A stretch of DNA of 63,021 bases, counting the filler. It is 7 parts of 7 records of this genome, joined end to end, with 100 filler letters (N's around TTAATTAATTAA, not from the genome) between each part and the next. Parts side by side here need not be neighbours in the genome. Positions count along the whole stretch, not along the records: positions 43,568 to 63,021 come from SRR20825019_2692; 6 more parts are not named here. One strand, 5' to 3'. Of the stretch, positions 6,487-61,588 are shown in pieces. Below the pieces are notes generated by a model. It was given only the letters and a program-made list of their open reading frames with translations, ran no database searches and was not told where the DNA came from. The position numbers and the translations under genes were made by a program. Position 1 is the first letter of the stretch. Each line of letters begins with the position of its first letter.

Positions 6487-6539
6487 ACTGCACCGCACAA
6501 TAAATGGCTTCGAAAGCCTGTCAACTCGCATTCCCGCCA

Positions 6540-34778: not shown

Positions 34779-34837
34779 AATATATAGGAAAACGAGAAGA
34801 CGTCATAAATATGCAACTAACCAATCCTAGCAGTTCT

Positions 34838-34861
34838 TCACACACACATACACACACACAC
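34838..34861. repeat. (CA)n microsatellite in 3' UTR/intergenic region
   Basis: CACACACACATACACACACACA. Confidence 0.8.
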
Positions 34862-35813: not shown

Positions 35814-35913
35814 NNNNNNNNNNNNNNNNNNNNNNNNNNNNNNNNNNNNNNNNNNNNTTAATTAATTAANNNNNNNNNNNNNNNNNNNNNNNNNNNNNNN
35901 NNNNNNNNNNNNN
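35814..35913. other. Artificial contig linker
   Basis: N-run, TTAATTAATTAA, N-run. Confidence 0.99.
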
Positions 35914-41962: not shown

Positions 41963-42847
41963 TCAATGTGAAGCGGAAGCGGGTTCTGCGACACGCTCGA
42001 TGTCGATCCTCATTTGTGGTCGTGTCAAAATCTGCCGGTCGGTTTCCAGCATCAGCTCATCCGACCCGCGTTCGATCGCCCTGTTGAGGATTGCGACTAC
42101 CGAGCCTGTGGTTTTGGCGAGAGCTTCTTCCTGGTTCTCGCCGGCGAGCAATCGGGCAAGGTAAAGTGCCGCGGTGAGATCGCCGGTACCGTTTGGAGCT
42201 TTGGGAATGCTGTCATGGGCCGCGCGCAGGACTTCCGTCTTCCCAACCAGCAGATTTGCCAGGCGGTCGGGGCTGCTCGCGGGAGCGGATGTCACCATCA
42301 CTTCGGCAGGGGGTGCCTTTCGGGCGGCATGTATCGCAGAATCGGTACCGTCAATATGGACGCCTGTGAGCCAGGCCAGCTCATAACGGTTTGGCGTGGC
42401 GATATCGGCAAGTGGCAACAGTCTGTCGCGGATGGCTGTAGCCGTTGCCTCAGGCACATACAGGCCGCCCCGGTCTCCAAGCACCGGATCGCAGACGTAG
42501 CGCGCTTCTGGATTGCGGCTTTTCAGGGTTTCCACCAGGCCAGCTATCGCATCCGCCTGTTCGGGACCGCCCAGATAGCCGGATAGAACTGCAGAGACTT
42601 CGCCGAGCCATGGCGCGTTTTCGAGATCGTTCATGAAACGCGCGAACTGGTCGGGTTCAGGGACGATGCGCGTCGCGGGACCGTGGCCCGGGTGCCAGGG
42701 CAGGATGACTGTGGGCACCGCCCAGACGGGAAACCCGAGGGCCTCCAATGTAAAGACGGCGGCACGATTTCCCACGCTGCCGCGCGCTACATGGCTGGAT
42801 ATGACAATAACGGCACGGGTTTCGCGCCGGTGTTCTTCTCTGGTCAT
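41963..42847 (-). CDS. pdxY: Pyridoxal kinase
   Basis: ISSHVARGSVGNRA, LSGYLG, CDPVLGD, TPNRYEL, PNGTGDL. Confidence 0.9.
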   Translation of the reverse strand: MTREEHRRETRAVIVISSHVARGSVGNRAAVFTLEALGFPVWAVPTVILPWHPGHGPATRIVPEPDQFARFMNDLENAPWLGEVSAVLSGYLGGPEQADAIAGLVETLKSRNPEARYVCDPVLGDRGGLYVPEATATAIRDRLLPLADIATPNRYELAWLTGVHIDGTDSAIHAARKAPPAEVMVTSAPASSPDRLANLLVGKTEVLRAAHDSIPKAPNGTGDLTAALYLARLLAGENQEEALAKTTGSVVAILNRAIERGSDELMLETDRQILTRPQMRIDIERVAEPASASH

Positions 42848-42855
42848 GCTGTCAT

Positions 42856-43104
42856 TTACCCGCCGATGATTCCGAAAACGTAAAGGAGGATCCAAAGGAT
42901 GAGGGCGGTCAGGGTGATTACCGCGATGGCTCTGCCGATCCGCGTTCCCCATAGTTCGATTGGATCGTCCTGTACCGCATCCCTTGCCGAAATGTGATCG
43001 CGCGCGCGGGTCATCATGGAGCTGCCTTCGCTTTCACGGCTGACCCGGTCAAGGATCCGCCGCGATTCTGCTTCTGCCTGCTCCACCCGCTTCCGTGCTG
43101 TCAC
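42856..43104 (-). CDS. Small single-TM hypothetical protein
   Basis: ESRRILDRV...DDPIELWGTRIGR followed by a TM helix; start uncertain. Confidence 0.65.
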   Translation of the reverse strand: MTARKRVEQAEAESRRILDRVSRESEGSSMMTRARDHISARDAVQDDPIELWGTRIGRAIAVITLTALILWILLYVFGIIGG

Positions 43105-43698: not shown

Positions 43699-44673
43699 TC
43701 AGGACATTTCAGCCAGCAGACACGCCGTATCGCCGTCGACGATGAGTGTTTTGACGATGCCACTCTTCAGAAGGGCAAGTGTTGCGTCAGCCTTCTCCAA
43801 ACCACCCGAGAGCAGGACCGTATGGGTCCCGCGCAGCGTTTCGAAATCAACGGCAAGCGTGCGATGATTCAACTCATGATCCACCGGCGTTCCATTCTTG
43901 TTGAAGAAAATGCCGTTCGTGTCGCCGACCGCTCCGGCGGCGTGCAACTCGTCGAGCTCGGCCTGGGAAATCATGCCGGATTGCCGCAGGAGCGAGCGCT
44001 TCGTGAGTTCGCCCACGGAAATGATCGCCAGATCGGGCTGACGCGCCATGTTCAGCACGGATTGCACAGTGGTTTGAGACAATAGCACGTCGCGGTCGCG
44101 CGGGGTGTTGGCAATGAAAGGCACCGCGAGGAAATAGCCCTCTGCGCCGGTGGCGCGGGCGAGCGCCTGCACCACTTCAAAAGGATTGAACGCGCTGTTG
44201 GCGGTCAGAGATCCCATCAGGCTGACAAACCGCGCATGCGGCGCACTGACGCCTGCCAGATTGCGGGTGATCTGGTCCAGCGTTCGTCCCCATCCCGTGC
44301 CGATTATCGCTTTGGGATGGCGATGAAGATACTCGCGCAGAAGCCTGGCGGCGAGCGAGCCAACGGCCCGGCGCGGATAGTCCACGAAATGTCCGGGCAA
44401 TGCATCGCTGCCGGAAAGACCAAGCGTTGGCGAACAGATGCAGCGTTCAAGCGCGAATCGCTGCCGGAGCTTGTTTTCGATCTGCAGAAGGCCGGTGCTC
44501 CCGGGATCGATCGAAATTGAGACAATGCCTGCGTCCTTGGCTTCCTGCAGCAGCTTGTTGACGCGGGCGCGAGTCGTGCCAAGGCGGCTGGCCGTCTCTT
44601 CCTGGTTGAGCCCGCCGACATAGTAGAGCCACGCTGCACGGCCCATCAGTTCGTAATCATCATTGTCCTTCAT
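43699..44673 (-). CDS. SorC/DeoR-family (LsrR/CggR-like) sugar-phosphate-binding repressor
   Basis: RAAWLYYVGGLNQEETASRLGTTRARVNKLL HTH; GTGWGRTL; GAVGD; LIVDGDTA. Confidence 0.93.
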   Translation of the reverse strand: MKDNDDYELMGRAAWLYYVGGLNQEETASRLGTTRARVNKLLQEAKDAGIVSISIDPGSTGLLQIENKLRQRFALERCICSPTLGLSGSDALPGHFVDYPRRAVGSLAARLLREYLHRHPKAIIGTGWGRTLDQITRNLAGVSAPHARFVSLMGSLTANSAFNPFEVVQALARATGAEGYFLAVPFIANTPRDRDVLLSQTTVQSVLNMARQPDLAIISVGELTKRSLLRQSGMISQAELDELHAAGAVGDTNGIFFNKNGTPVDHELNHRTLAVDFETLRGTHTVLLSGGLEKADATLALLKSGIVKTLIVDGDTACLLAEMS

Positions 44674-44725
44674 GCTTCGCTTTTAGCCGTTGTCTCCAAC
44701 TCTGACAATCGAATGAATGGCCAAT

Positions 44726-44760
44726 AATTACATTTGTATCGAAGCTTGACAAAAGTAATT
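44726..44760. promoter_or_regulatory. Probable operator overlapping the -35 (TTGACA) of the catabolic operon
   Basis: AATTACATTTGT-N11-ACAAAAGTAATT inverted repeat (11/12 match) containing TTGACA at 44746-44751. Confidence 0.65.
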
Positions 44761-44837
44761 CAGAGACGCAAACTTGCCAGGTGGACGCGGTTAGGAGGAC
44801 TGCGCACACGTCAATTCCGAAGAGGAGGGAATAGAAT

Positions 44838-45785
44838 ATGTCCAGATACATGTCCGCCTATGTCATGAGCGCCACGCTGTTTGCCGTCGGTTCCGGCGCA
44901 GCCATGGCCCAGGACAGCCTTGATGTCGCCTGGGTGCATTCCAATGCCGCGGCACAATCCGAACAGCGCGTGAAGGCCGGCTTTGAGGAATGGTTGGGCG
45001 AGAATGGCTATGACTGGAATGTGAGCTTCCTGGACAGTCAGGGCTCGGGCGAGGCGACGGCATCGAATCTGCAGGACGCGGTTTCGCGCGGGGTCGACGC
45101 TATCATCATCACCATGTCGGATCTGCGCGCTTCGAAGGCTGCAATCGACGTTGCCCTTGAGGCCGGCGTGCCGGTTTTCTCCGTCGACAGCGGCTATATC
45201 GACGGCGTGCAGGTGGATGTGACGACGAATAACTGGGCCATGTCCGCTGACGTATCGCCCTATCTGCTCGATCAGATGGGCGGCGAGGGCAACCTGATCT
45301 TCCTGCGCATGGCCGAGCATCACGGCACACGCAAGCGCGGCGATGTCATGCAGATGGTGCTGCAGGAATATGGCGATGTGAATGTGCTTGCTGAACACAA
45401 TATCGACTATACCGCCTTCTTCGAGGACACGACGTCCACGATGCAGGACTATGTTGCTCGCTTCGGCGAGGATATCGATGCTGTATGGGCGCCGTGGGAC
45501 GAGCCGGCCCAGGCCGCGATCAATGTGATGAAGGCCGCCGGCCTGACCGACGTAAAGGTGATCGGCATCGATGGTCACCCGCAGGCTCTTGCCGAGGTTT
45601 GCAAGCCTGACAGCATGATGATCGCAACCGTCAGTCAGCCGTTTGAAGAAATGGGCGCCCAGGTCGGCGACTGGATCGAGCAGATAGTCGGCGAGGGCAA
45701 GGCCCGCGAGGATGTGATCCCCAGCGACATCGTCTATCTCGATGCGCCGCTCGTGACCAAGGCGAACTGCAAGGACTTTATGTAG
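44838..45785 (+). CDS. Sugar ABC transporter substrate-binding protein (RbsB-like, CUT2)
   Basis: Signal peptide, GVDAIII, VIGIDG, ATVSQP; type-I periplasmic binding fold. Confidence 0.92.
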   Translation: MSRYMSAYVMSATLFAVGSGAAMAQDSLDVAWVHSNAAAQSEQRVKAGFEEWLGENGYDWNVSFLDSQGSGEATASNLQDAVSRGVDAIIITMSDLRASKAAIDVALEAGVPVFSVDSGYIDGVQVDVTTNNWAMSADVSPYLLDQMGGEGNLIFLRMAEHHGTRKRGDVMQMVLQEYGDVNVLAEHNIDYTAFFEDTTSTMQDYVARFGEDIDAVWAPWDEPAQAAINVMKAAGLTDVKVIGIDGHPQALAEVCKPDSMMIATVSQPFEEMGAQVGDWIEQIVGEGKAREDVIPSDIVYLDAPLVTKANCKDFM

Positions 45786-45797
45786 TCCGGTTCCTCC

Positions 45798-45836
45798 CCG
45801 GCAGGCGGGCCGCGCTTTGTTTTCGCGGCCTGCCGG
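45798..45836 (+). other. Intra-operonic stem-loop after the SBP gene
   Basis: CCGGCAGG..GCCGCG / CGCGGCCTGCCGG bulged hairpin, no U-tail. Confidence 0.45.
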
Positions 45837-45878
45837 CTGCCAGATATCCCAATCCAACACTTCGACAGGAAGGCACGC

Positions 45879-47399
45879 ATGTCCGTGCATCTCTCCGATA
45901 TCGTTATGGAATTTCCCGGTACGCGGGCGCTTGACGGCGTGAATGTAACCTTCGGCTTCAACGAGGTTCACGGGCTTGTGGGCGAGAATGGCGCGGGCAA
46001 AAGTACCTTCGTCAATATTCTTGGCGGTTCGCTTCAGCCAACTGCGGGCGGCGTCTCCATCTCTGGAAAACCCGTCATTCTCTCCAGCCCGCGCGCCGCA
46101 TTGGCGCATGGCATTGCCCATGTCAGCCAGGAGGGCAGCCTTGTTCCCTCGCTGACGGGGGCAGACAACATCATGCTTGGCAGCGAACCGAAACACGGTT
46201 TTGGTATTCTTCATCGCAGCGCCCTGCGCGCCGAGGCCCGGCGCCTGCTCGCGGAGTGGTTTCCCGGTGTCGAGATCGATCTCGACCGTCCGATCACCGA
46301 CCTGCCGATGGCGGAGCGCAAGGTCATCGAGATTGTACGCGCGCTCAGGGGCGATATCCGGCTTCTGATCCTCGACGAGCCGACGGCAACGCTTGAGGCG
46401 CGCGAAAAGAAACGGCTTTGGGACATTATCCGCCTCCTGCCGCAAAAGGGGGTCGGTGTTGTCCTGATTTCCCATTTCCTTTCGGAAGTCGTCGCGCTTT
46501 CGGACAGGGTGACTGTTTTGCGCGACGGAAAGCATGTCGGCACGCTTGATGGCGCGGATGCCAGCGAGGCCACGTTGACGGATATGATGCTCCGTCGAGA
46601 AGACGCGCAGGATGCGCCGACCGCAACCACGCCGGTCGCGACACGATCTCCGGCAGGCGAGGGCAGCGTCGTCCTGTCCGTTTCTGATTGGCGTGCTGGA
46701 TCAATCCAAGTGGATCGGTTCGCGTTGCAGGCCGGAGAAATTGTCGGCCTTATCGGGCTGACAGGGGCCGGTCATTTCGGCTTTGCGCGTTCGCTCTACA
46801 CGCGGCACGGTGTTGTGAAGGGTAAGATTGCGGTCGCCGGAACAGAGGTTCGTCAGTCCGGTGTGCGGGCGATGCAGCGCGCGGGTGTGGCTTTCGTGCC
46901 GGACCACCGCATAGAAAACGCACTGGCGGGTGACGGAACCGTGGTCGAGAACCTCACCATGGTTCATTCCAGTTTCGCTGCGACGAGCGGTATTCTGAGC
47001 CACGGCAAGGAGCGTCGGGAGGCCAGCCGCATCATCAAGCTTCTGAACGTGAAGACGCCCAATCAGAGACAGCTTATCCGCAATCTGTCCGGCGGGAACA
47101 AGCAGAAGGTTTCGATCGGAAAATGGCTCTACGGAATCGGGAATCCCTACAAGGTCCTGATCTTCATCGAGCCCACCGAAGGCGTCGATATCGGCGCGAA
47201 AATGGAGATTTATGCCCATATGCGCAGGCTTGCGGCCGATGGCGCCGCAATCCTGATCGCGTCTTCCGATCTCGGGGAAATCGCGCAGGTCTGTGATCGG
47301 GCCATTCCCTTCGTCCATGGCCTTCCCGGCGCCGACATTCCGGCATCCGAATTCTCCGAAGGCCGGTTCATTCAAGCCATTTCTGGAGATGCAGCATGA
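45879..47399 (+). CDS. Sugar ABC transporter ATP-binding protein (two NBDs, RbsA-like)
   Basis: GENGAGKS, LILDEPT, ISHFL, LSGGNKQK. Confidence 0.94.
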   Translation: MSVHLSDIVMEFPGTRALDGVNVTFGFNEVHGLVGENGAGKSTFVNILGGSLQPTAGGVSISGKPVILSSPRAALAHGIAHVSQEGSLVPSLTGADNIMLGSEPKHGFGILHRSALRAEARRLLAEWFPGVEIDLDRPITDLPMAERKVIEIVRALRGDIRLLILDEPTATLEAREKKRLWDIIRLLPQKGVGVVLISHFLSEVVALSDRVTVLRDGKHVGTLDGADASEATLTDMMLRREDAQDAPTATTPVATRSPAGEGSVVLSVSDWRAGSIQVDRFALQAGEIVGLIGLTGAGHFGFARSLYTRHGVVKGKIAVAGTEVRQSGVRAMQRAGVAFVPDHRIENALAGDGTVVENLTMVHSSFAATSGILSHGKERREASRIIKLLNVKTPNQRQLIRNLSGGNKQKVSIGKWLYGIGNPYKVLIFIEPTEGVDIGAKMEIYAHMRRLAADGAAILIASSDLGEIAQVCDRAIPFVHGLPGADIPASEFSEGRFIQAISGDAA

Positions 47400-48391
47400 C
47401 GCCGCACCGCTCTTCACCGTCCGAGCCGGTCAAAACGCCCGCAGGCAGACCCGTCCGATCGGACTTCATTCAGCGTTATTCCACGCTGGGCGTTCTCATC
47501 CTCATGTTCATCGGCTTTTCGCTGTTCGTGGACAGGTTCCTGACGCCATTCAACCTGACCAATATCCTGCAGCAGATCGCGATCCTGACGATCGTCGGCT
47601 CGGGGTTGACCATTGGCTTTGCGGCGAAGGAGATCGATCTTTCGGTGGGCTTCACCGTGGGGCTTTCCGGCATCCTCGTTCCCCTTCTCCTGACGTCCGG
47701 ATATTCTATCGCAGTGGCGCTTCTGGCGGGGCTGGCGGCGGGCGTTCTGGTCGGCGTCGTGAACGGCTTTCTCATCACCAGGGTGGGGATACCCTCGCTG
47801 ATCGCGACGCTTGCCATGGGATCGATCCTGTTCGGGATAAACTTCCTGATGACCGGCGGCCGCGCAATCTATGGCGGTCTGCCCGATGCCTATCTCGCGC
47901 TCGGCCAGGGACGCATCTTCGGTATTCCGAACCTTGCGTTCTTCATGGTGATTGCCGTGGCGATCGCCTGGTTTGTGATGGAGCGGACGGTTTTCGGACG
48001 CTACGTCTATGCCGTCGGCGGCAATCAGAAGGCGGCCGAGCTTTCGGGGGTGCGCATCACCTTTTACCGGATGGCCGCACTGGTGCTTGTCTCCGTCTTT
48101 GCGGTCGTTGCCGGCGCGCTTCTCGCCTCGCGGTTGGGTTCGGGCCAGCCCAATGTGGGCGAACGCTACCTGCTCGACGGGCTTGCCACCGTCTTTATCG
48201 GGATGACGATGTTCCGCCCCGGCACGGCTACCGTGCTCGGCACGCTTTGCGGCGCGCTCTTCATCGGCGTGATCAATAACGGGCTGAACCTGATCGGGAT
48301 GGATACCTACATCCAGAACATCGTGAAGGGCGTCATCATTCTAATCGCGGTCGCGATCGTCTCGCGCACCACCAAACTCAATCTTCTCTGA
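47396..48391 (+). CDS. Sugar ABC transporter permease (RbsC-like)
   Basis: IDLSVG, IPSLIATL, FGRYVYAVGGN..AAELSG. Confidence 0.94.
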   Translation: MTPHRSSPSEPVKTPAGRPVRSDFIQRYSTLGVLILMFIGFSLFVDRFLTPFNLTNILQQIAILTIVGSGLTIGFAAKEIDLSVGFTVGLSGILVPLLLTSGYSIAVALLAGLAAGVLVGVVNGFLITRVGIPSLIATLAMGSILFGINFLMTGGRAIYGGLPDAYLALGQGRIFGIPNLAFFMVIAVAIAWFVMERTVFGRYVYAVGGNQKAAELSGVRITFYRMAALVLVSVFAVVAGALLASRLGSGQPNVGERYLLDGLATVFIGMTMFRPGTATVLGTLCGALFIGVINNGLNLIGMDTYIQNIVKGVIILIAVAIVSRTTKLNLL

Positions 48392-48401
48392 GGATGCCAT
48401 C

Positions 48402-49457
48402 ATGACTGCACCCAGCGATACCGTCGTATCGGACAAGGCGCCGCGTTCGAACACCGAGCTTCTCCCGCTTTACACGGAAATGCGCCGTGTCCGGACTTTC
48501 GAGGAACGTGTCGGCGAACTCTTTGTGCGCGGCCAGTCCGCGGGCTCCATGCTTCACCTGTCGATTGGCGAAGAAGCTGCCGCCGTTGGCGTTGCCTCGC
48601 TGATGCGCGATGGCGACACGTTCACAACCCATCACCGCGGTCACGGCATTTTTCTGGCCCGCGGCGCGGATCCGAAGCGGATGATGGCGGAGATCGGAGG
48701 CAAGGAAGAAGGCTATTGCCGGGGCAAGGGCGGTTCGATGCACATTGCCGATATGGGGCTTGGCCATCTTGGCGCCAATGCCATCGTCGGCGGCGGCATT
48801 GCCGCTGTGGTCGGCGCCGGCCTGGCCTCCAAACGGGCCGGGAAGGGCGCCGTCTCCGTTGCCTTCTTCGGCGATGGCGCGATGCAGCAGGGGATTCTCT
48901 ACGAGAGCATGAATATGGCCGCGCTCTGGGATCTGCCGGTTCTGTTCGTCTGCATCAACAATCAGTATGGCATGGGAACACGCATCGAGCAGGCCACCAA
49001 GGGTCGCGCCTTGCATGAGCGCGGACTGGCTTTTGGACTGAACGCGGAAACGGTGGACGGCCTCGACGTTCGCGATGTCCGCTCCGCGGCAGCCCGTTTC
49101 ATCGATGAAGCGCGCAACGGCAAGCCGGGCTTCCTCGCGATCGAGTGCTACCGTTTCTTCGGACATGCGCGAATGGACAAGAGCCCGTATCGCAGCGAAG
49201 AGGATGAAGCCAGGGGGCGGGCCAAGGATCCGGTGCTTCACGCCCGCAAGGCCCTGCTTGAGCATGGCGAGGCCGATGAAAAGGCGCTCGATGTGATCGA
49301 CGCCGAAATCGCACGCGAGATGGACGCAACCATCGACTTTACCGTCGCAAGCACCGAGCCGCCGCTCGGATCGATGTTCCGGGATGTCTATGCGCCTGGC
49401 GAGCCCGAACCGGAGCCGGTGGCCACGCGTATTGACCGAATTCTGGCAGGGGAGTGA
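48402..49457 (+). CDS. ThDP-dependent dehydrogenase E1 alpha subunit (AcoA/PdhA-like)
   Basis: HLSIGEEA, HHRGHG, GKGGSMH, GDGA...NN ThDP motif, YRFFGH. Confidence 0.93.
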   Translation: MTAPSDTVVSDKAPRSNTELLPLYTEMRRVRTFEERVGELFVRGQSAGSMLHLSIGEEAAAVGVASLMRDGDTFTTHHRGHGIFLARGADPKRMMAEIGGKEEGYCRGKGGSMHIADMGLGHLGANAIVGGGIAAVVGAGLASKRAGKGAVSVAFFGDGAMQQGILYESMNMAALWDLPVLFVCINNQYGMGTRIEQATKGRALHERGLAFGLNAETVDGLDVRDVRSAAARFIDEARNGKPGFLAIECYRFFGHARMDKSPYRSEEDEARGRAKDPVLHARKALLEHGEADEKALDVIDAEIAREMDATIDFTVASTEPPLGSMFRDVYAPGEPEPEPVATRIDRILAGE

Positions 49458-49461
49458 GCCA

Positions 49462-50451
49462 ATGGTCGAGATGACTTACAGAGACGCGCTCAAGCAGGCG
49501 TTGATCGATACGATGACCGAGGACGACAGCGTCGTCGTGATCGGCGAGGAAGTCGGACGCTATGGCGGGGCCTATGGCGTGACCAAGGGGCTTTACGAGA
49601 CCTTCGGCGCGGAGCGCATGATCGACACCCCCATTTCCGAACCGGCGATCGTCGGCGCGGCCGTCGGGGCGGCAATGTCGGGCATGCGGCCGGTTGCGGA
49701 ACTGATGTATGTCGACTTCATCGGCATGACCATGGATCAACTGGGCAACCAGGCTGCCAAGATCCGCTATATGTTCGGCGGACAGATCGGCGTTCCGATG
49801 GTGCTGCGAACCCAGGGCGGGACCGGACGTTCGGCCGGCGCGCAGCATTCCCAGTCACTGGAAGCCTATGTCATGCATACGCCGGGCCTCCGGCTGGTCA
49901 TGCCGGCAACGGTTTCTGACGCCTATCACCTCTTGCGTCAGTCCCTGAAGCAGCCGGATCCGGTCGTGTTCATCGAGCACAAGGCGCTTTACACCCTGAA
50001 AGAGGATGTCGATCTGAGCGCGCCTGCGCCGGACTGGGGCAAGGCCGCCGTGCGTCGTATGGGCGATGACCTTGTGATCGTGACCTATTCCCGCCAGGTC
50101 CATAATGCCATGGCGGCGGCCGAGGCCCTGGCGAAGAATGGAATAGAAGCAACGGTGATCGATCTGCGGTCGCTCAACCCCCTGGATTTCGACACGGTGC
50201 GCGCGCATGTTGAGCGGGTCGGGCGGGCGATGGTCGTCTCCGAAGGCGTGATGACGGCCGGGGTCGGCGCGGAACTCTCCGCGCGCATCCACGAAGAGTG
50301 CTTCGACTTCCTTGCCGAACCCGTCATCCGCGTCTGCGGTGAAGATATCCCGATCTCCGTGTCGGTCGAGCTGGAGAAGAATTCGGTCCCGACGGCGCCC
50401 TTCATTCAGGATGTGGCTCAACGGCTGTTCGCGGACAGGAGAGTAGCATGA
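49462..50451 (+). CDS. ThDP-dependent dehydrogenase E1 beta subunit (AcoB/PdhB-like)
   Basis: GEEVG, DTPISE, AAKIRYMFGG, GAQHSQSLE, FIEHK, IDLRSLNPLD. Confidence 0.94.
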   Translation: MVEMTYRDALKQALIDTMTEDDSVVVIGEEVGRYGGAYGVTKGLYETFGAERMIDTPISEPAIVGAAVGAAMSGMRPVAELMYVDFIGMTMDQLGNQAAKIRYMFGGQIGVPMVLRTQGGTGRSAGAQHSQSLEAYVMHTPGLRLVMPATVSDAYHLLRQSLKQPDPVVFIEHKALYTLKEDVDLSAPAPDWGKAAVRRMGDDLVIVTYSRQVHNAMAAAEALAKNGIEATVIDLRSLNPLDFDTVRAHVERVGRAMVVSEGVMTAGVGAELSARIHEECFDFLAEPVIRVCGEDIPISVSVELEKNSVPTAPFIQDVAQRLFADRRVA

Positions 50452-52001
50452 CAACTGTCACCCTTTCCATGCCGCGCCTGGGTGAAACCATGGAAGAAGG
50501 CACGGTCTCGGGATGGCTTGTTGCCGAGGGCGAGGAATTCGCGCGCGGCGCGGCGCTGATCGAGTTCGAGACCGACAAGACGGCGGTGGAATATCCCGCA
50601 CTTGGCGCGGGCCGGCTGGTGAAGCAGCTTGCCGCCAAAGGCGATCTGATCCGTCTTGGCGAACCGATCGCGGAAATCGACCTCATGGGCGGTGATGACT
50701 GGGTCAGCAGCGGCGATGCGACGACGGATACAGCCGGTCAGGCTAAAGGTTCGGCCGAGGGAAGGCAGGGCGATACCGTCGTCATCGACCTGTTGATGCC
50801 GCGTCTCGGAGAGACGATGGAGGAAGGCCGGATCATGGGCTGGATGGTCGCCATCGGTGTGCATTACGAACGCGGCGCCTCGATCATCGAGGTCGAAACG
50901 GACAAGACCGTTGCCGAGTTTCCCGCCCTTGTGCCAGGCCGGATTGTCGAAACCCTCGTCGAACCCGGCGATATGGTCAAGGTGGACATGCCGATCGCGC
51001 GTATCGAGGTTGCGCGATCGGATGCGCCGCAAGCTGATGAAGCCGGAGAGGCGAAGACCTCTGCCCCCGAACATCAAACCGCAGACCGGCAGCCCGCCGC
51101 TTCGGCCCAGGCGCGCGCGGGAGGTCCCGTGCGGGCAACGCCGCTTGCCCGCCGTGCTGCACGCCGGGCCGGTCTCGATATCGCTTCGGTCAGCGGGACG
51201 GGACGGCGCGGACGCATCGAGCTTGCCGATGTCGAACGCGCGCTAACCGGCCACGTGGGCGCCTTGGCGTCCAAGAGCTGGGGCCCTGCTTCGGGCGCGC
51301 CGGTCCTGCTGGTCCATGGTTTTGGCGGAGACCGGTTGACCTTCGATCAGTTGGGCAAGGTTCTTGGACGGACTGGGCTTTCCGTGCGCGCGGTCGATCT
51401 GCCCTCTCACGGCAAGACCGACGTTCAGGCCCGCAATTTCGAAGATATCGTCACCGCGCTGACGGGCGAGCTGGACCCACAGCGCCCCGTGCATCTGGTT
51501 GGCCATTCACTTGGCGCAGCCGCATGCGTTGCCGCAGCCGCCCGGCATGGCGGCGCGGCGTCATTGACGTTGATCGCGCCCGCCGGGCTCGGCCTGGGTA
51601 TCGACGCGGAGTTCATTTCCGGCATGGCGCGGGCTGAAAGCGCGGGTGCTGTCGGGCATTTGCTGCGGCGTCTGTCCTCACGCGCGGAGACGTTCTCTCG
51701 CGAGATTGTTTCCGAGATCCATGCGGAATTGGCAAAGGGGCGTCTTGCGGATCTTGCGCAGGATATCTGCAGAGGCGGTCAGCAATCCGTGAATGTGCGG
51801 ACCGATCTGGCGCAGCTTGCCGGCGAGATCCCGGTGCGGACCCTCGTCGGCATGCAGGACCGGATCGTGGACTGGCGCGACGCCATCGACGTTTCATCGG
51901 CCATAGCGGTCCATGTTTTCCCGCGTGCCGGCCATATGCCGCATTGGGATGCCCCCGCCGAGGTCGCTACAATCCTGGAGAAGGAACTGAACCATGTCTG
52001 A
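50448..52001 (+). CDS. E2-like fusion: two lipoyl domains, peripheral-subunit-binding domain and alpha/beta hydrolase (AcoC-like)
   Basis: ETDKTAVE and ETDKTVAE lipoyl-Lys sites; ATPLARR...GTGRRGRIELADV PSBD; HGFGG, GHSLG, QD and AGH hydrolase triad; no HxxxDG acyltransferase core. Confidence 0.9.
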   Translation: MTTVTLSMPRLGETMEEGTVSGWLVAEGEEFARGAALIEFETDKTAVEYPALGAGRLVKQLAAKGDLIRLGEPIAEIDLMGGDDWVSSGDATTDTAGQAKGSAEGRQGDTVVIDLLMPRLGETMEEGRIMGWMVAIGVHYERGASIIEVETDKTVAEFPALVPGRIVETLVEPGDMVKVDMPIARIEVARSDAPQADEAGEAKTSAPEHQTADRQPAASAQARAGGPVRATPLARRAARRAGLDIASVSGTGRRGRIELADVERALTGHVGALASKSWGPASGAPVLLVHGFGGDRLTFDQLGKVLGRTGLSVRAVDLPSHGKTDVQARNFEDIVTALTGELDPQRPVHLVGHSLGAAACVAAAARHGGAASLTLIAPAGLGLGIDAEFISGMARAESAGAVGHLLRRLSSRAETFSREIVSEIHAELAKGRLADLAQDICRGGQQSVNVRTDLAQLAGEIPVRTLVGMQDRIVDWRDAIDVSSAIAVHVFPRAGHMPHWDAPAEVATILEKELNHV

Positions 52002-52332
52002 GACAGCATTTTCCGATAAGCTGAAAACCGCAAAGTCCCGCATGGGCGGATTCGCCAAATCGGCGCCGGAACTGATGCGTGGCTTCGCCGCCGTTTCCGG
52101 TGCAGCCACGAAAGCCGGCCATTTTTCCGCGGCCGACCGGGAACTGTTCGCCGTATCGATAGCGGTTGCAACACGCTGCGAGGACTGCATCCTCTATCAT
52201 GTGGAGGCCGCAAAGCGCCACGGCGCCGAAGAGGCCGTTCTTGTCGAGGCGCTGGAGGTCGCGGTCGAGATGGGCGGCGGACCGGCGGTGATGTATGCGG
52301 GAAAGGCGCTGGAGGCTTTCCGCGTTCTGTGA
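51994..52332 (+). CDS. CMD/AhpD-family protein with CxxC
   Basis: RELFAVSIAVATRCEDCILYH AhpD core; MGGGP; overlaps the E2-like gene. Confidence 0.9.
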   Translation: MSETAFSDKLKTAKSRMGGFAKSAPELMRGFAAVSGAATKAGHFSAADRELFAVSIAVATRCEDCILYHVEAAKRHGAEEAVLVEALEVAVEMGGGPAVMYAGKALEAFRVL

Positions 52333-52362
52333 ACGGTGCAAGCCGCAACAAGGGAGGAGACC

Positions 52363-53850
52363 ATGGTCTATTTTTTGACAGCCGATGGCGGCACTGAAAG
52401 TCTGCGCGCGCGGGTCTACGATCTGAAAGGCAAATGTCTCGGGACGCAGGCTGTTGCCTATCAGACGGATTTCAAACCCGGACGGGTTGAGCAGAACCCT
52501 GAAGACTGGTGGGCGAATTTCGTCGCCGCCGCGCGCGGCGCGATCGCGCAATCGGGCGTAAATCCGCCTGAGATAGAGGCGATCTGCTATGCCACAACCT
52601 GTTGCACCGTTGTCGCGCTCGATGAAAATGGACGCGCTCTGCGCCCGGCGATCATGTGGATGGATGTCCGGGCTCATGATGAAGCGCAGGCCGTGTTGGC
52701 GACGGGCGATGCCGCGCTGGAACTGAATGGCGCTGGCCACGGGCCGGTCTCGGCGGAATGGATGATACCGAAAGCGCTCTGGCTCAAGCGCAACGAACCA
52801 CACATCTTCGGCAAGGCGCATCGTATTTGTGAGTATCAGGACTTTTTGACCTACCGCCTGACCGGTGAATGGGCCGCGAGCCTCGATAATGCCGGCTTGC
52901 GCTGGCACTACCGCTCCCGCCAGGGCGGTTTTGCCGCCGGGCTTTTGAAGGCGCTCGACCTTGGAGAACTGAAGGGGAAATGGCCGAACCGGGTGGTCGC
53001 GCCCGGCGATGTGATCGGGACGCTGAGCTCGTCGGCCGCCAATGAGCTCGGTCTTTCGACTTCGGTCAAGGTGGTGCAGGGCGGCGCCGACGCCCTGATC
53101 GGAATGATCGGCCTCGGCGTGCACAAGCCGGGCCAGCTGGCAATGATTACCGGTTCGTCGCATCTGCAGTTCGGCGTGACCGAAAACCCGATTCATGCGC
53201 ACGGCGTTTGGGGCAGTTATGCCGATATCGTCTATCCGGATCGCTGGATCGTGGAAGGCGGGCAGACCTCGACGGGGTCGATCATCAACTGGCTTTCGCG
53301 CCTGACCGGCGGTCCCCTGAATTTCGAGGAACTTAACCGGAAGGCGGCGGCGCTTGAGCCTGGATGCGACGGGCTGCTGGTGCAGGATCATTTTCAGGGC
53401 AACCGCACACCCCATACCGATCCCCTGTCGCGCGGGGCCATTGTCGGGCTGACGCTGGGCCATGAGATGCACCATATCTTCCGTGCTGTGATGGAAGGGA
53501 TCGGCTTCGGTACGCGCGCCATTCTGGATGCATTCGGGGCCGCCGGCTATTCCGGCGAGGAAATGACGGTCGGCGGCGGCGCGGCGGCCTCCGATCTCTG
53601 GCTGCAGATCCACGCGGATACGGCGGGCATTCCCGTAAGCATTCCCGCATCAGCGGATGCGCCATCCACCGGCTCCGCGGTGCTTGCCGGCGTCGGCGCA
53701 GGCCGGTTCGCATCCATTGATGAAGGTATTGGAGCGATGGTGCACAAGGGTCGGGTAATCGAGCCTCGCCGCGAGAATGTCGAAAAATACAATGAAATCT
53801 ATGCGCGCTATGTTGCCCTCTATCCGGCGCTCAGGGAGATTCTCGCATGA
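52363..53850 (+). CDS. FGGY-family carbohydrate kinase (ribulokinase/xylulokinase-like)
   Basis: ADGGTES, EQNPEDWW, IMWMDVRA, GGADA, QGNRTP, GGGAAS..WLQIHAD. Confidence 0.92.
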   Translation: MVYFLTADGGTESLRARVYDLKGKCLGTQAVAYQTDFKPGRVEQNPEDWWANFVAAARGAIAQSGVNPPEIEAICYATTCCTVVALDENGRALRPAIMWMDVRAHDEAQAVLATGDAALELNGAGHGPVSAEWMIPKALWLKRNEPHIFGKAHRICEYQDFLTYRLTGEWAASLDNAGLRWHYRSRQGGFAAGLLKALDLGELKGKWPNRVVAPGDVIGTLSSSAANELGLSTSVKVVQGGADALIGMIGLGVHKPGQLAMITGSSHLQFGVTENPIHAHGVWGSYADIVYPDRWIVEGGQTSTGSIINWLSRLTGGPLNFEELNRKAAALEPGCDGLLVQDHFQGNRTPHTDPLSRGAIVGLTLGHEMHHIFRAVMEGIGFGTRAILDAFGAAGYSGEEMTVGGGAAASDLWLQIHADTAGIPVSIPASADAPSTGSAVLAGVGAGRFASIDEGIGAMVHKGRVIEPRRENVEKYNEIYARYVALYPALREILA

Positions 53851-54590
53851 CCGTGTGGGACAGGTTCTCCCTTGCCGGTCAGACCGCACTCGTCACCGGC
53901 GGCGCGAAAGGCATTGGCGCGGCGATCTCGAAAACCCTTGCCGAAGCTGGTGCAACTGTCACGATTGCCGATCTCGACATCGTTGAGGGCGAGGCGCTGG
54001 CCGGTCGACTTGGCGGTCACTTCATCCACCTCGATGTCTCGGATTTCGACGCTTGCGCTGCTGTCGCGCAAAGCATCACGCCGGATGTTCTGGTGGCAAA
54101 TGCGGGGATTGTTCACAACGCGCCAACCGCAGAGATCGATCCTGCCGACTGGCGGCGCGTGATCGACGTCAACCTGTCAGGCGTCTTCAATACGCTACGG
54201 GCTTTCGGTCCGGCAATGGTGGCGCGCGGATCGGGCGCCTGTGTCTGCACCTCGTCCATGTGCGGCGAAGTATCGGTGTGGCCGCAGCCGCAGGCCGCCT
54301 ACAACGCGGCGAAGGCAGGGGTAAACCTGCTCGTCAAGTCGACCGCGGTCGAATGGGCGCGCTCGGGCGTGAGGGTCAACGCGATTGCGCCCGGATATAC
54401 CGCTACGGAGCTCACGCTTGCCGGGCGTTCCAGGCCGGAATGGTTCGAAGTCTGGATGGACCGCACGCCGATGGGTCGTCTCGGCGAACCGCGGGAGATT
54501 GCAGACAGCGTGCTGTTCCTGTGCTCCACCGCTGCAAGTTTCATCACCGGCACGGTTCTGACCGTCGACGGCGGCTACACGGCCCTATGA
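53847..54590 (+). CDS. SDR oxidoreductase, polyol-dehydrogenase-like
   Basis: TGGAKGIG, ANAGI, PQPQAAYNAAK, VDGGY. Confidence 0.9.
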   Translation: MTVWDRFSLAGQTALVTGGAKGIGAAISKTLAEAGATVTIADLDIVEGEALAGRLGGHFIHLDVSDFDACAAVAQSITPDVLVANAGIVHNAPTAEIDPADWRRVIDVNLSGVFNTLRAFGPAMVARGSGACVCTSSMCGEVSVWPQPQAAYNAAKAGVNLLVKSTAVEWARSGVRVNAIAPGYTATELTLAGRSRPEWFEVWMDRTPMGRLGEPREIADSVLFLCSTAASFITGTVLTVDGGYTAL

Positions 54591-54604
54591 GAATGGAGGA
54601 GAGA

Positions 54605-55357
54605 ATGACGGAAACAAGAACGGCGCTTGTTACGGGCGCAAGCCGGGGCATTGGCGCCGCCATCGCGACGGGGCTGGCAAAGCGCGGCTATGATCTCGTT
54701 CTTAACGATATCGAGCGGCAGAAGGCCGATCTGGAGGCGGTCGCGGAAAACATTCGCGGCATGGGGCGGCGGGTCGAAATCGTATTCGCCGATGTCAGCG
54801 ATAAGGCTCAGGTGGAAGCGATGGCTCGCAAGGCGCTCGACGCCTTCGGCCAGATCGATGCTCTGGTGAACAATGCCGGCATTCTGATCGCGGGTGAGGT
54901 TGACGGCCTTCCCGAAGCCAGTTGGGATGCTGTGATGGACATCAACGCCAAGGGTTCGTTCATGGTCATTCAGTCGTTTTTGCCGTCGATGAAGAAACGC
55001 GGTTACGGCCGGATCGTGAACATCGCTTCGATCGGGGGCAAGCATGGCGCCCCGCAACAGGCGCATTATTCCGCGTCCAAGGCGGCGGTCATGGGCTTTT
55101 CCCGCGTCCTGGCGCAGGAGGTCGGGCCGCTCGGCATCACTGTCAACTGCGTTTGCCCGGGCATTATCCTGACGGATATGGGCCGCGTGAACCTTGACGA
55201 CCCAGCGGTGCGCGAGGCCTGGCAGGAGAAGACCGCCATGGCAAGGATCGGCGTTCCCGAGGATGTCGTCGGCCCCGTCGCCTTCTTCGCATCCGACGAT
55301 GCGGGCTTCGTGACCGGTCAGACTTTGAATGTCGATGGCGGTATCGTGTTTTCTTGA
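54605..55357 (+). CDS. SDR oxidoreductase (FabG/diol-dehydrogenase-like)
   Basis: TGASRGIG, NNAGI, YSASK, GQTLNVDGG. Confidence 0.92.
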   Translation: MTETRTALVTGASRGIGAAIATGLAKRGYDLVLNDIERQKADLEAVAENIRGMGRRVEIVFADVSDKAQVEAMARKALDAFGQIDALVNNAGILIAGEVDGLPEASWDAVMDINAKGSFMVIQSFLPSMKKRGYGRIVNIASIGGKHGAPQQAHYSASKAAVMGFSRVLAQEVGPLGITVNCVCPGIILTDMGRVNLDDPAVREAWQEKTAMARIGVPEDVVGPVAFFASDDAGFVTGQTLNVDGGIVFS

Positions 55358-55799: not shown

Positions 55800-55812
55800 T
55801 GGAGTGGGAACA

Positions 55813-57000
55813 ATGAACAAGCGGCCAACGATTGCCGATGTAGCAAAAGCAGCCGGCGTATCCACCGGCACGGTCTCGAATTTCCTGAACGAGACCCGGC
55901 CGATAAAGCCGGCTACCGCGGAGCGAATCGAAAACGCTATCCGCAGCTTGACCTATCGTCCGAGCGCCTTTGCGCGGGCATTGCCGCTGCGTGCAGCCCG
56001 CCATGTCGAAAAATCGGATGACCTACCTCGGCTGCTCGTTGTTGGTCATATCTGCGTCGATTATCTCTGCCGCGTTCCCGTTCTGCCCCATCGCGACGAC
56101 CGCGTCAGCGCTGACGTCATAGAAAAAGCCATGGGCGGCCCCGGCGCAAATCTTGCGGTGGCCGCTGCCGGCCTTGGCGAACCATACGGTTTAAACGTCG
56201 ATCTTGCCACCGCGGCGGGCGACGACGCAGACAGTGAATGGGCGCTCAACTGCCTGAACCGGTGCGGCGTCGACACCATTCCCCTCAGAAAGCCCAAAGC
56301 CAACCGGCTGCCCAAGGCGATGGTAATGATCGAGGCCAATGGCAGTCGAACGATCGTTGCAGAAACGTTCGAACTCACCGAGATCGACCTGACCGGAAAG
56401 ATCGATATCGAAGCCCCCGAGCATCCCTCATGCCTCCATATTGAAGGGTTTCAATATGAGAATATGCGTTCTTCCATCGAAATGTTCCGTGAGGCCGGAT
56501 GGCGGATAAGCCTCCATGGCGCAGGCTTGCCGGCAAAGGCCAGAACGCCGGAAGCTTTCGCGAGACTGCTCGAGCGCATCGACATGACGTTCGTGAATGA
56601 TGAAACCGTCCGCGCGATCTTCAGCATCAATGCGCCGCTTGCCGCGATGATCGATGAGTTCGCACGTGTCCTGTCGCGTATCAAGCAGCGCGGCGATGTT
56701 GTGCTGACGCTTGGTCCTTTCGGCGCGGTCGTGTTTCCGCGCAAGGCCATGAGCTACATCGAAGTGCCGGCGCTCGCTGTTGAGCCGATCGACGTCACCG
56801 GCGCAGGCGATGCCTTTGCAGGAATTTTTCTCAATCTCTGGCTTCACGGCGAAACGCTCGAACAGGCGGCGCGCTACGCCACGATCGGCGCCAGCCTTTC
56901 GACAACGGCGGTCGGGGCGCAGGTCCGCATTTCGTCCACCTCTGAGATTCAGGCCTTGCTGCCGTCGCTGTCGTTAAAGCCGACCCGCGCGGTCTCATAA
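55813..57000 (+). CDS. LacI-family HTH fused to a PfkB/ribokinase domain
   Basis: PTIADVAKAAGVSTGTVS...YRPSAFARAL; MGGPGANLAVAAA, LTLGPFGA, DVTGAGDAF. Confidence 0.9.
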   Translation: MNKRPTIADVAKAAGVSTGTVSNFLNETRPIKPATAERIENAIRSLTYRPSAFARALPLRAARHVEKSDDLPRLLVVGHICVDYLCRVPVLPHRDDRVSADVIEKAMGGPGANLAVAAAGLGEPYGLNVDLATAAGDDADSEWALNCLNRCGVDTIPLRKPKANRLPKAMVMIEANGSRTIVAETFELTEIDLTGKIDIEAPEHPSCLHIEGFQYENMRSSIEMFREAGWRISLHGAGLPAKARTPEAFARLLERIDMTFVNDETVRAIFSINAPLAAMIDEFARVLSRIKQRGDVVLTLGPFGAVVFPRKAMSYIEVPALAVEPIDVTGAGDAFAGIFLNLWLHGETLEQAARYATIGASLSTTAVGAQVRISSTSEIQALLPSLSLKPTRAVS

Positions 57001-57041
57001 CTCCGCCCATTGCGCGAACACGAAAAGACAAGGGAACAGAT

Positions 57042-57818
57042 ATGCCATCGAAAAAAATACTATTGGTCGGCGAGAGCTGGGTCACGTCCGAAACCCACTA
57101 CAAGGGTTTCGATCAATTCGGCAGCGTTCACTTCCATCTGGGCGCAGAGCCGCTTGTCGCCGCGCTGAAGGCAAAGGGCATCGAAGTCGACTACATGCCC
57201 GCGCATGAAGCGGCCGAAGCATTCCCCTTCGAAAAATCCGGCCTCGAGCCTTACTCGGTCGTTATTCTCTCAGATATCGGCGCCAATACCCTGCTTCTGC
57301 CGCCATCCGTCTGGATCCACGGAAAGCCCGTTCCCAACCGCTTGAAAATGCTGCGCGAATGGGTCAGTGAAGGCGGCGGCCTGTTCATGGCCGGTGGCTA
57401 TTTCAGTTTCCAGGGCATCGACGGCAAGGCGCGTTGGCGTTCCACGCCGGTTGAAGACACGCTGCCGGTCAACTGCCTTCCCTATGATGACCGGCTCGAA
57501 GTGCCGGAAGGTTTCCGCCCGGTTCTCGCCAAGGGTCAGTCACACCCAATCTTCCATGGCCTGGAAGGCGAATGGCCAATCCTGCTCGGCGCCAACGAGG
57601 TTGTCGCCAAGGCGGACGACAGCGTCGAGGTTCTGGCAACGCTTCCCGAGGGTGACGGCGGCCATCCCCTTCTTGTAACCGGCCAATACGCCAAGGGCCG
57701 CACGGTCGTCTGGACCTCGGATATCGGCCCGCACTGGCTGCCGACGCCATTCGTCGAATGGTCCGGTTACGGTGTTCTGTTCGCCAACATTCTCCGCTGG
57801 GCGGCGCGCGAGATCTGA
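57042..57818 (+). CDS. Class I glutamine amidotransferase-like protein (DUF1355/GATase1_like)
   Basis: LLVGESW..HYKGFDQF, ILSDIGANTLL, GGGLFMAGGYFSFQG, WTSDIGPHW. Confidence 0.85.
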   Translation: MPSKKILLVGESWVTSETHYKGFDQFGSVHFHLGAEPLVAALKAKGIEVDYMPAHEAAEAFPFEKSGLEPYSVVILSDIGANTLLLPPSVWIHGKPVPNRLKMLREWVSEGGGLFMAGGYFSFQGIDGKARWRSTPVEDTLPVNCLPYDDRLEVPEGFRPVLAKGQSHPIFHGLEGEWPILLGANEVVAKADDSVEVLATLPEGDGGHPLLVTGQYAKGRTVVWTSDIGPHWLPTPFVEWSGYGVLFANILRWAAREI

Positions 57819-57846
57819 CCGGCCGGATTAGTCGAGGGATTTGATT

Positions 57847-58620: not shown

Positions 58621-58650
58621 AGCACGCTACCTTCAGAGAGGAATTTCAAG

Positions 58651-59637: not shown

Positions 59638-59645
59638 GGCAGATC

Positions 59646-61582: not shown

Positions 61583-61588
61583 TGCCAA

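Follow-up and report, generated by a model that had tools for sequence, protein, structure and literature searches.

The window analysed here is a stretch of 63,021 nucleotides from one genome (parts of seven records joined end to end, with filler between them), and its positions 43699–55357 hold eleven packed genes: a divergent gene for a SorC-family regulator and ten co-directional genes on the plus strand. Open reading frame (ORF) listing and Pfam and NCBIfam profile searches found every one of these genes where an initial annotation of the window had placed it. That annotation had read the group as a pathway in which an imported polyol is oxidized to a ketose, phosphorylated and then split by a lipoyl-dependent complex. 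The regulator gene (43699–44673, minus strand; PF04198, 189.6 bits) encodes a sugar-phosphate-sensing protein of the SorC/DeoR(Bacillus) type. The ten plus-strand genes encode, in order, an RbsB-like (CUT2) periplasmic solute-binding protein (SBP; 44838–45785; PF13407, 110.6 bits), an ABC transporter ATPase with two nucleotide-binding domains (45879–47399; PF00005 in two stretches), an ABC transporter permease (47396–48391; PF02653, 143.2 bits), a thiamine diphosphate (ThDP)-dependent E1α of an FGGY-linked clade of acetoin-type E1 (48402–49457; PF00676, 213.7 bits), E1β (49462–50451; PF02779 and PF02780), an AcoC-type E2 (50448–52001; two Biotin_lipoyl domains, E3_binding and Abhydrolase_6), a 112-residue thiol-disulfide protein of the AhpD/CMD family with the motif CEDCILYH (51994–52332), an FGGY carbohydrate kinase resembling pentulose kinases (52336–53850; PF00370 and PF02782) and two short-chain dehydrogenase/reductase (SDR) oxidoreductases, SDR1 (53847–54590; PF13561, 210.8 bits) and SDR2 (54605–55357), the better conserved of the pair. 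The start of E1β at 49462, inside an ORF of 49384–50451, is the most likely one and was picked by alignment to 990-bp orthologues. Successive plus-strand genes are spaced by 93, −4, 10, 4, −4, −8, 3, −4 and 14 bp, the divergent gap between sorC and the operon is 164 bp, and at the 3′ border a 446-bp gap precedes a LacI-type gene. As the initial annotation had claimed, none of the 11 products matches an aldolase, isomerase, transketolase, E3, AcoX or sigma-54 regulator (AcoR) family of Pfam or NCBIfam.

How widely is this arrangement kept? A scan of one genome per species confirmed at least 545 relatives of E1α. The best 80 (71–88% identity) were fetched with 10-kb flanks and the eleven window proteins were placed on these loci by tblastn; longest-ORF calling gave spurious antisense ORFs in GC-rich loci, and the tblastn placements were relied on instead. 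Where at least 4.6 kb were available 3′ of E1α (70 loci), both the E2 and the FGGY kinase lie downstream of E1α/E1β in 69. The sole exception, in Aliiruegeria lutimaris (L032, about 12000–14100), has E1α/β and the SDRs; no E2 or FGGY kinase was found there, possibly as the result of a deletion. Of the 64 loci covered on both sides, 63 have a SorC-family gene of at least 45% identity flanking E1α and L052 has a 40% match; 48 of the 64 also carry a window-type ABC transporter. At the lower end, two minimal loci (L010 and L031) consist of SorC, E1, E2 and kinase only. Conversely, orthologues of the kinase (60–70% identity) occur in 3 of 401 sampled alphaproteobacterial genomes and adjoin E1/E2 in all 3, in one of them preceding E1 rather than following E2. 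The next-best kinase homologue (52%, G115) does not adjoin E1/E2, and its neighbours (DUF2332, 6PGDH-like dehydrogenases, PhyH and an RTX protein) offer no hint of a substrate. The arrangement is far beyond chance: the linkage of E1 to the FGGY kinase, on whose conservation the initial annotation had made its proposal depend, stands, and kinase and ThDP/lipoyl complex belong together as a functional unit that is conserved and controlled by a SorC-type regulator. Thus, SorC, E1α/β, E2 and the FGGY kinase form the core, and the transporter, the oxidoreductases and the AhpD-like protein form a variable shell.

Over its whole length the cluster matches plasmids of Tritonibacter mobilis at 75–76% DNA identity, and the same gene order is found in Nitratireductor sp. 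OM-1, in Sinorhizobium meliloti Ak57 and in a record labelled Roseateles sp. XES5 (UNVERIFIED_ORG). The flanks differ from genome to genome among these four, so the module has borders of its own. Carriers belong to the Rhodobacterales, to several families of Hyphomicrobiales, to a few Rhodospirillales-like metagenome-assembled genomes and to the Granulosicoccaceae (Gammaproteobacteria); the cluster is frequent in the marine Roseobacter group and in plant-associated rhizobia and is often plasmid-borne. At least 120 E1α protein clusters stand at 73% identity or above, and their database names are generic. In S. meliloti Ak57 (L084, 10985–12303), the annotation splits the E2 into two ORFs separated by a gap, a 438-bp "hypothetical protein" and a 747-bp α/β hydrolase, and the gene may be broken or mis-assembled. 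In Nitratireductor sp. OM-1 (L002, 16926–19136), there is just one SDR gene after the kinase, and about 700 bp past it comes an IS6-family transposase; two other Nitratireductor loci (L005 and L006) have SDR2 only.

What kind of complex do the E1 and E2 genes encode? The E2 scores above the cut-off of the AcoC equivalog model (NF011457, 367.2 bits against 307) and Pfam finds no 2-oxoacid_dh domain (PF00198) in it. It is built of two lipoyl domains (ETDKT occurs twice), an E3-binding domain and an acyltransferase domain of the α/β-hydrolase fold with GHSLG at 352; this combination of lipoyl and α/β-hydrolase parts is the architecture of AcoC in Cupriavidus and Pseudomonas. Among 75 FGGY-linked loci, 46 have one lipoyl domain per E2 and 29 have two. 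The Ser (x-H-S-x-G), Asp and His (G-H-M) of the catalytic domain are kept in all 75, as they are in 4 of 4 loci linked to DXR-II (see below) and in 14 of 14 canonical ones. Because these residues are kept and NF011457 is passed, the "hydrolase" is, judged by its sequence, the ordinary acyl-transfer domain of AcoC, and with the triad intact transfer of a C2 unit to CoA is more likely than hydrolysis to a free acid. The initial annotation had let this domain either free an acid or pass the unit to CoA; a standard AcoC catalytic domain gives no special reason to expect the former.

The E1α subunit gives the same picture. HRGHG, GSMHIAD and GANxIVGGG are common to the FGGY-linked, the canonical acoX-linked and the DXR-II-linked E1α, whereas pyruvate dehydrogenase (PDH) E1α reads YRDHGH, GSMHMFS and GGHGIVGAQ at these positions (consensus of 83 FGGY-linked, 6 DXR-II-linked, 14 canonical and 3 PDH rows). 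The nearest solved relative is human PDH E1α (E = 3e-54), and the matches to DXS and transketolase models are weak. We rejected a 2-oxoacid dehydrogenase (PDH or branched-chain type, BCKDH): E1α falls below the cut-offs of TIGR03182 (PDH E1α, 317.7 bits against 393.85) and TIGR03181 (199.6 against 411), its motifs differ from those of PDH in the same genomes, and PF00198 is absent. The view that this is a ketol-cleaving complex of the acetoin type rather than a 2-oxoacid dehydrogenase is therefore upheld. The loop that follows the catalytic GH has the sequence GHARxDKSPYR in the FGGY type, GHSKSDRNRYR in the DXR-II type and GHFEGDaqtYR in canonical Aco; it is basic in the FGGY type and acidic in the canonical one, and the extra basic residues of the first two types hint at an anionic substrate.

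For comparison, AcoC-type E2 proteins were searched in the 401 alphaproteobacterial genomes; 38 have one above the cut-off, and 20 loci were fetched. In some of these, L159 and L160 among them, an NAD-kinase-like AcoX stands directly before E1α, the canonical acoXABC form. In L159 (10142–12807, plus strand), the canonical E2 is followed by an aldo-keto reductase (AKR) and an AMP-binding, acyl-CoA synthetase-like gene. An IQ-TREE phylogeny of 55 E1α sequences, with BKD as outgroup, puts the FGGY-linked proteins in one clade (26 rows, support 100/99, stem 1.81) and the canonical acoX-linked ones in another (15 rows, 100/99), alongside clades of DXR-II-linked (6 rows, 80/97) and PDH (3 rows, 100/97) sequences; two long-branch rows (L166 and L092) are of uncertain place. 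Acetoin dehydrogenase (AcoA/AcoB/AcoC, with AcoX and AcoR/AcoL in some species) and the window complex thus share a heterotetramer-type ThDP E1, an E2 of lipoyl, E3-binding and α/β-hydrolase parts, and an expected chemistry, the non-decarboxylating cleavage of an α-hydroxyketone. The window type differs in its own E1α clade, in having no acoX, sigma-54 regulator or E3 and often two lipoyl domains, and in being joined to an FGGY kinase, a SorC gene and usually a sugar ABC transporter. For the complex to work without E3 or acoX would not be unusual in itself. The operon is a real, so far uncharacterized variant of the acetoin-dehydrogenase system, and full-text literature searches found no description of an E1/E2/FGGY cluster.

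The kinase, the SBP, the ATPase and the regulator resemble sugar-handling families and stay below the equivalog cut-offs given here. The best-scoring named model for the kinase is XylB (TIGR01312, 292.4 bits, cut-off 380.25), against 263 bits for ribulokinase, 171.5 for LsrK (cut-off 528) and 136 for GlpK; its nearest solved relative is 3GG4 (E = 5e-58). The SBP reaches 85.6 bits against RbsB (NF007936, cut-off 337), with 3L49 as nearest solved protein (E = 1.9e-23). The ATPase is AraG-like at 373 bits (cut-off 689) and scores 293.5 against LsrA (cut-off 586), and the SorC regulator stays below the cut-offs of DeoR (163 against 420) and LsrR (114.8 against 486). Solved-structure searches returned no close liganded relative for the SBP, E1α or the kinase.

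Are the SDRs an obligatory step? SDR1 is below all equivalog cut-offs (BudC, 192 bits against 270), and SDR2 passes generic SDR subfamily models only (BudC, 214 against 270; acetoin reductase, 196.8 against 304). At least one SDR is present in 46 of the 64 loci covered on both sides (both in 36, SDR2 alone in 9, SDR1 alone in 1). An AKR is present in 12, never together with an SDR, and a ketose 3-epimerase-like gene in 9. Because so many loci lack an SDR and have an AKR or a ketose 3-epimerase instead, the SDR pair probably serves to adjust a ketose, and the pathway does not depend on it as a polyol step. The peripheral oxidoreductases are swappable, and SDRs, AKR and epimerase seem to be different means of supplying the core with the ketose it needs. 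Of the entry proposed in the initial annotation, oxidation of a polyol by the SDRs survives as one option only, and ketose interconversion fits better.

Three architectures recur around the core. In architecture A, that of the window, the ABC transporter, the core and the SDRs stand together. In architecture B, the SorC gene is directly 5′ of the core and an AKR follows it; the other strand encodes an RhaS/LsrB-like binding protein, an ATPase, permeases and an ATP-dependent DhaK/DhaL kinase. In architecture C, a second type of SorC gene, a ketose 3-epimerase, the core and the kinase form one operon, neighboured by a DhaKL/ABC operon and by a pair of genes for a FucA-like class II aldolase and an AKR. 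The epimerase is very close to solved "D-tagatose 3-epimerase" (7DZ2 and 7DZ5, E = 7e-141). Its gene lies at 9159–10007 (plus strand) in L021 and also occurs in L036, L048, L058, L060, L070, L072, L073, L077, L081 and L083, sharing an operon with the E1/E2/kinase core or with genes of the dihydroxyacetone phosphate (DHAP) shunt. L060 is of the latter kind: at 3962–8869 (plus strand), genes for a SorC-like regulator, the ketose 3-epimerase, MtnK (469 bits, cut-off 275), MtnA (482.8, cut-off 271) and a class II aldolase make up a DHAP shunt with an epimerase, back to back with the SorC gene of the core and with an ABC transporter having an RhaS/LsrB-like binding protein upstream. L020 and L055, A-type loci without SDRs, have MtnK and/or MtnA a few kb away. 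Genes for methylthioribose (MTR) kinase, isomerase and aldolase or for DhaKL and aldolase adjoin the core in variants B and C. The neighbourhood leans to the metabolism of deoxy-pentoses or rare ketoses. The window itself carries none of the additional genes.

A sister operon bears on what the complex may cleave. Two genomes with the FGGY-linked cluster, Brucella pseudogrignonensis (G003) and Paracoccus alkanivorans (G004), have a second AcoC-type E1/E2 set with its own SorC gene, and the gene directly 5′ of this second E1α encodes the Pfam "DRL catalytic domain". The DRL-domain proteins match the Brucella DXR-like oxidoreductase 3UPL over their full length (E = 8e-217 and 7e-195), a similarity that marks them as true DXR-II, which PMC3847144 sets apart from two look-alike families. 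Among nine DXR-II loci examined (54–100% identity to the query), E1/E2 stand next to DXR-II in six (L112, L113, L145, L146, L147 and L149). L144, a second copy in G003 (77% identical), and L148 have no E1/E2 beside DXR-II, and the ninth locus is a 5-kb contig. In L112, DXR-II, the acetoin-type E1α/E1β, the AcoC-type E2 and a SorC-family regulator occupy 9147–13860 on the minus strand. Uptake and phosphorylation are encoded next door, by a CUT1 ABC transporter and a PfkB kinase (L145–L147) or by glucitol-/galactitol-type components of a phosphotransferase system with an EI-HPr fusion (L112). As far as the literature searches reach, these operons are uncharacterized; their E1α is 43–45% identical to the FGGY-linked one, and their entry enzyme is DXR-II in place of the FGGY kinase and SDRs. 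1-Deoxyxylulose 5-phosphate (DXP) is a methyl ketol, and its cleavage by a ThDP enzyme gives a C2 unit and glyceraldehyde 3-phosphate. On the simplest reading, the DXR-II operon would turn methylerythritol by way of methylerythritol phosphate (MEP) into DXP, and ThDP-dependent cleavage would then yield the C2 unit as acetyl-CoA together with glyceraldehyde 3-phosphate. Full-text literature searches found no paper on methylerythritol catabolism, and what the DXR-II link shows, and no more, is joint use of Aco-type complexes with a methyl-ketose phosphate.

Two further elements complete the locus. Between sorC and the operon, two palindrome-like boxes at 44728–44758 (TTACATTTGTA at 44728–44738 and TTGACAAAAGTAA at 44746–44758), 19 nt apart from start to start and both TTACAAATGTAA-like, form a putative operator of the SorC regulator. 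The strict pattern T[TG]ACAnnnGT-N5-15-ACnnnTGT[AC]A is found in 27 of 63 sorC-operon spacers of related loci and on average in 0.0 of them over 200 shuffles; the second box of the window is one base off this pattern (AGT for TGT). A scan of the operon for promoters and terminators gave 5 and 13 hits against shuffled expectations of 3.2 and 10.1, not above expectation. The AhpD-like protein is a member of AhpD/CMD (TIGR00778, 38.9 bits, cut-off 27.8; PF02627, 66.7 bits). CxxCxxxH is present in 45 of 45 orthologues, with C62, C65 and H69 invariant in 24 aligned sequences, and the gene overlaps the E2 stop by 8 bp. In mycobacteria, the lipoyl arm of the PDH E2 reduces AhpD; the AhpD-like protein of the operon may, in a similar way, tap the dihydrolipoyl arm or shield it. 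A complex prediction with the second lipoyl domain of the E2 gave no answer (0.00 against a mark of 0.32) and counts neither way. In 44 of 69 loci the gene stands between those for E2 and the kinase; C-type loci all lack it.

What reaction does the operon serve? The best overall explanation, to which we give a probability of about 0.5, is that the genes form a catabolic operon, complete in itself and repressed by SorC, for a small sugar-like compound. Uptake would proceed through the RbsB-like ABC transporter, and the two SDRs (in other species the ketose 3-epimerase and/or the AKR) would turn the compound into the right ketose, which the FGGY kinase would phosphorylate at a terminal hydroxyl. 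E1α/β would then cut the C2–C3 bond, freeing an aldose phosphate and keeping the C2 unit on ThDP. Oxidation would move this unit to the lipoyl arm of the E2, the Ser-His-Asp domain would hand it on to CoA, and the general E3 of the cell would reoxidize the arm. In this general form, oxidative cleavage of a ketose as a ketol, coupled to a kinase and ending in an acyl-CoA, appears probable. We hold more tentatively, somewhat short of an even chance, to a specific version in which a 1-deoxy-ketose phosphate is converted to acetyl-CoA and glyceraldehyde 3-phosphate. Our guess at the substrate is a methyl-ketone (1-deoxy) ketose phosphate such as 1-deoxy-pentulose 5-phosphate, with a reaction that would be the oxidative mirror image of DXP synthase. 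This version is favoured because both related E1 clades, the canonical acetoin one and the DXR-II-linked one, handle methyl ketols, because the minimal loci need products that enter central metabolism unaided, and because pentulose kinases accept 1-deoxy-xylulose. The initial annotation had left the choice between a glycolyl- and an acetyl-lipoyl thioester; with an Aco-type paralogue sharing an operon with DXR-II, acetyl from a methyl ketone is the favoured half of that claim and glycolyl the less favoured.

A wider proposal, slightly more doubtful again, is that acetoin-type E1/E2 gave rise to several lipoyl-dependent "deoxy-ketose phosphate dehydrogenase complexes", a family that includes both the FGGY- and the DXR-II-linked branch. 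The family reaction, DXP-synthase chemistry in reverse and with oxidation, would be 1-deoxy-ketose phosphate + CoA + NAD+ → acetyl-CoA + triose phosphate + NADH. The DXR-II branch would catabolize methylerythritol via MEP and DXP, and the FGGY branch would scavenge free 1-deoxy or 5-deoxy sugars, candidates being 1-deoxy-pentuloses and rearranged by-products of S-adenosylmethionine metabolism (5-deoxyribose and autoinducer 2, AI-2).

Several points weigh against the acetyl version or the operon model at large. E1β passes a PDH-β subfamily model (NF006667, 351.8 bits, cut-off 321). The order among the E1α clades is a polytomy that leaves unsettled whether the FGGY-linked proteins are nearer to the DRL-linked or to the canonical ones, the analogy with DXP draws on paralogy and context only, and the argument from the basic loop residues is drawn from consensus sequences. 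By stereochemical reasoning, 1-deoxy-pentuloses derived from 5-deoxyribose or AI-2 would give L-, not D-glyceraldehyde 3-phosphate. The linked AKR was considered as an L-glyceraldehyde 3-phosphate reductase, a candidate weakened by its matches: it reaches E = 9.5e-102 with the ketone-reducing 4XK2 and only about 1e-37 to 1e-39 with such reductases (YghZ type), and its nearest solved relatives are other AKRs (4XK2 and DepB). In addition, the kinase could act after cleavage rather than before. Finally, three carriers (G001, G002 and G005) have no second AcoC-type E2 above the cut-off, and in carriers of this kind the complex could also serve acetoin.

Could the C2 unit be glycolyl instead? Here the ketose phosphate would bear a hydroxyl at C1 (for example L-xylulose 5-phosphate, L-ribulose 5-phosphate or a branched or rare ketose phosphate), and E1 would work as an oxidative transketolase, giving glycolyl-lipoyl and an aldose phosphate and, in the end, glycolyl-CoA or glycolate. 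The closeness of the kinase to xylulo- and ribulokinases is consistent with this, as is the alternative 3-epimerase, which acts on ordinary free ketoses to judge by its solved D-tagatose and L-ribulose 3-epimerase relatives; SDR pair and 3-epimerase can both interconvert ribulose and xylulose via arabitol. We nevertheless consider this version unlikely, since with the query set used no glycolyl-CoA- or glycolate-handling gene was linked in any of the 80 loci, the minimal loci would leave glycolyl-CoA stranded, xylulose 5-phosphate and ribulose 5-phosphate need no such route, and the two neighbouring E1 clades handle methyl ketones. Reversing the order of steps seems somewhat less plausible still. 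E1/E2 would then cleave a free ketose, and the FGGY kinase (DhaKL in architectures B and C) would phosphorylate a product such as glyceraldehyde or glycerol. Canonical acetoin E1 does act on an unphosphorylated ketol, DhaK-type kinases phosphorylate glyceraldehyde, among the 80 loci DhaKL accompanies the core in 17 and AKR in 18, and the FGGY family includes glycerol kinase; but the window kinase scores far better as a pentulose kinase than as GlpK (292 against 136 bits), and the extra basic residues in the active-site loop of the FGGY- and DRL-type E1 argue against an uncharged substrate. SorC-family regulators, too, usually sense phosphorylated pathway intermediates, according to PMC12632272.

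Two known systems could also underlie the operon, both of them improbable. The lsr operon for AI-2 has the same logic of a SorC-family repressor (LsrR), a CUT2 ABC importer (LsrACDB; RbsB/LsrB-like here) and an FGGY kinase (LsrK), and its end products are acetyl-CoA and triose phosphate. 4,5-Dihydroxy-2,3-pentanedione (DPD), a methyl diketone, would be imported, possibly reduced by the SDRs, whose nearest named equivalogs are both BudC/acetoin reductases, phosphorylated, and destroyed by E1/E2 in place of LsrG/LsrF. The binding protein of variants B and C matches LsrB at 111–113 bits. Yet all Lsr scores are far under their cut-offs (LsrR 114.8/486, LsrK 171.5/528, LsrB about 113/384), the LsrF thiolase and LsrG isomerase families are absent from the window operon, where cleavage would be oxidative and lipoyl-dependent, and cleavage of (S)-DPD phosphate would, on stereochemical reasoning, give L-configured C3 products. 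Sinorhizobium presumably already has a classical lsr-type system. We find this reading hard to sustain, and give even less credence, very little in all, to ordinary acetoin/2,3-butanediol catabolism (AcoABC with butanediol dehydrogenases) that merely lies beside unrelated sugar genes. The E2 passing the AcoC model, the likeness of the SDRs to BudC and the three carriers with no other AcoC-type E2 speak for it. Against it, the kinase gene belongs to the operon in 69 of 70 loci, with reading frames that overlap or nearly touch, the E1α clade is separate from acoX-linked E1, there is no acoX, a SorC-type sugar regulator with a conserved operator-like motif stands in place of a sigma-54 AcoR, and 18 of the 64 loci have no SDR.

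Returning to the proposed cleavage of a 1-deoxy-ketose phosphate, its closest chemical relatives are DXP synthase and the split transketolases, of which the apulose-4-phosphate transketolase of D-apiose catabolism is an example. The ThDP chemistry at C2–C3 of a ketose phosphate is the same, and the bond would be that of DXS in reverse; DXS and transketolases make the C2 unit from pyruvate or hand it to an aldehyde, whereas in the window system it would leave as acyl-CoA. The DHAP shunt for 5-deoxyribose and MTR (MtnK/DrdK, MtnA/DrdI, Ald2/DrdA and MtnR), which adjoins the core in L060 and lies in its vicinity in L020 and L055, cleaves by a class II aldolase into DHAP and an aldehyde with no ThDP or lipoate, and the window has none of its genes. 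According to PMC12632272 and PMC6079011, this shunt handles deoxy-pentoses and is repressed by a regulator called DeoR-family.

If the proposal is correct, oxidative, lipoate-dependent C2–C3 cleavage directly to acetyl-CoA and triose phosphate would join aldolases, transketolases and phosphoketolases as a new mode of sugar cleavage. The minimal loci fit products that need no further dedicated enzymes, and a cluster this common, with its at least 545 relatives, implies that its substrate has some ecological importance. The proposal would also account for DXR-II sharing an operon with an "acetoin dehydrogenase", offer a natural function for the industrially used ketose 3-epimerases of the D-tagatose 3-epimerase family, and suggest that an AhpD-type thiol protein is connected with a lipoyl carrier in bacteria other than mycobacteria.

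The surroundings of the operon in the window appear unrelated to it. Beyond sorC lie a LemA fragment, a Phos_pyr_kin-family kinase, a carbonic anhydrase and a major facilitator superfamily (MFS) transporter. The kinase (41963–42952, minus strand; Phos_pyr_kin/PfkB family, pyridoxal or hydroxymethylpyrimidine kinase type) is 750 bp past the SorC gene and is not conserved beside the cluster in the other genomes inspected. On the 3′ side, a separate unit at 55804–62905 (plus strand) starts with the LacI-type regulator and a GATase1-like protein (PF07090), continues with another CUT2 binding protein and further genes, and has an M20 peptidase last. Elsewhere in the window, a 1337-residue ORF at 28186–32199 (plus strand), whose sole Pfam match is a WW domain (47.1 bits), falls within a low-GC stretch of about 28000–36000 (44–52% GC against about 60% elsewhere); further low-GC stretches occur at 8–10 kb and 16–20 kb, and the region with the long ORF may be foreign DNA.

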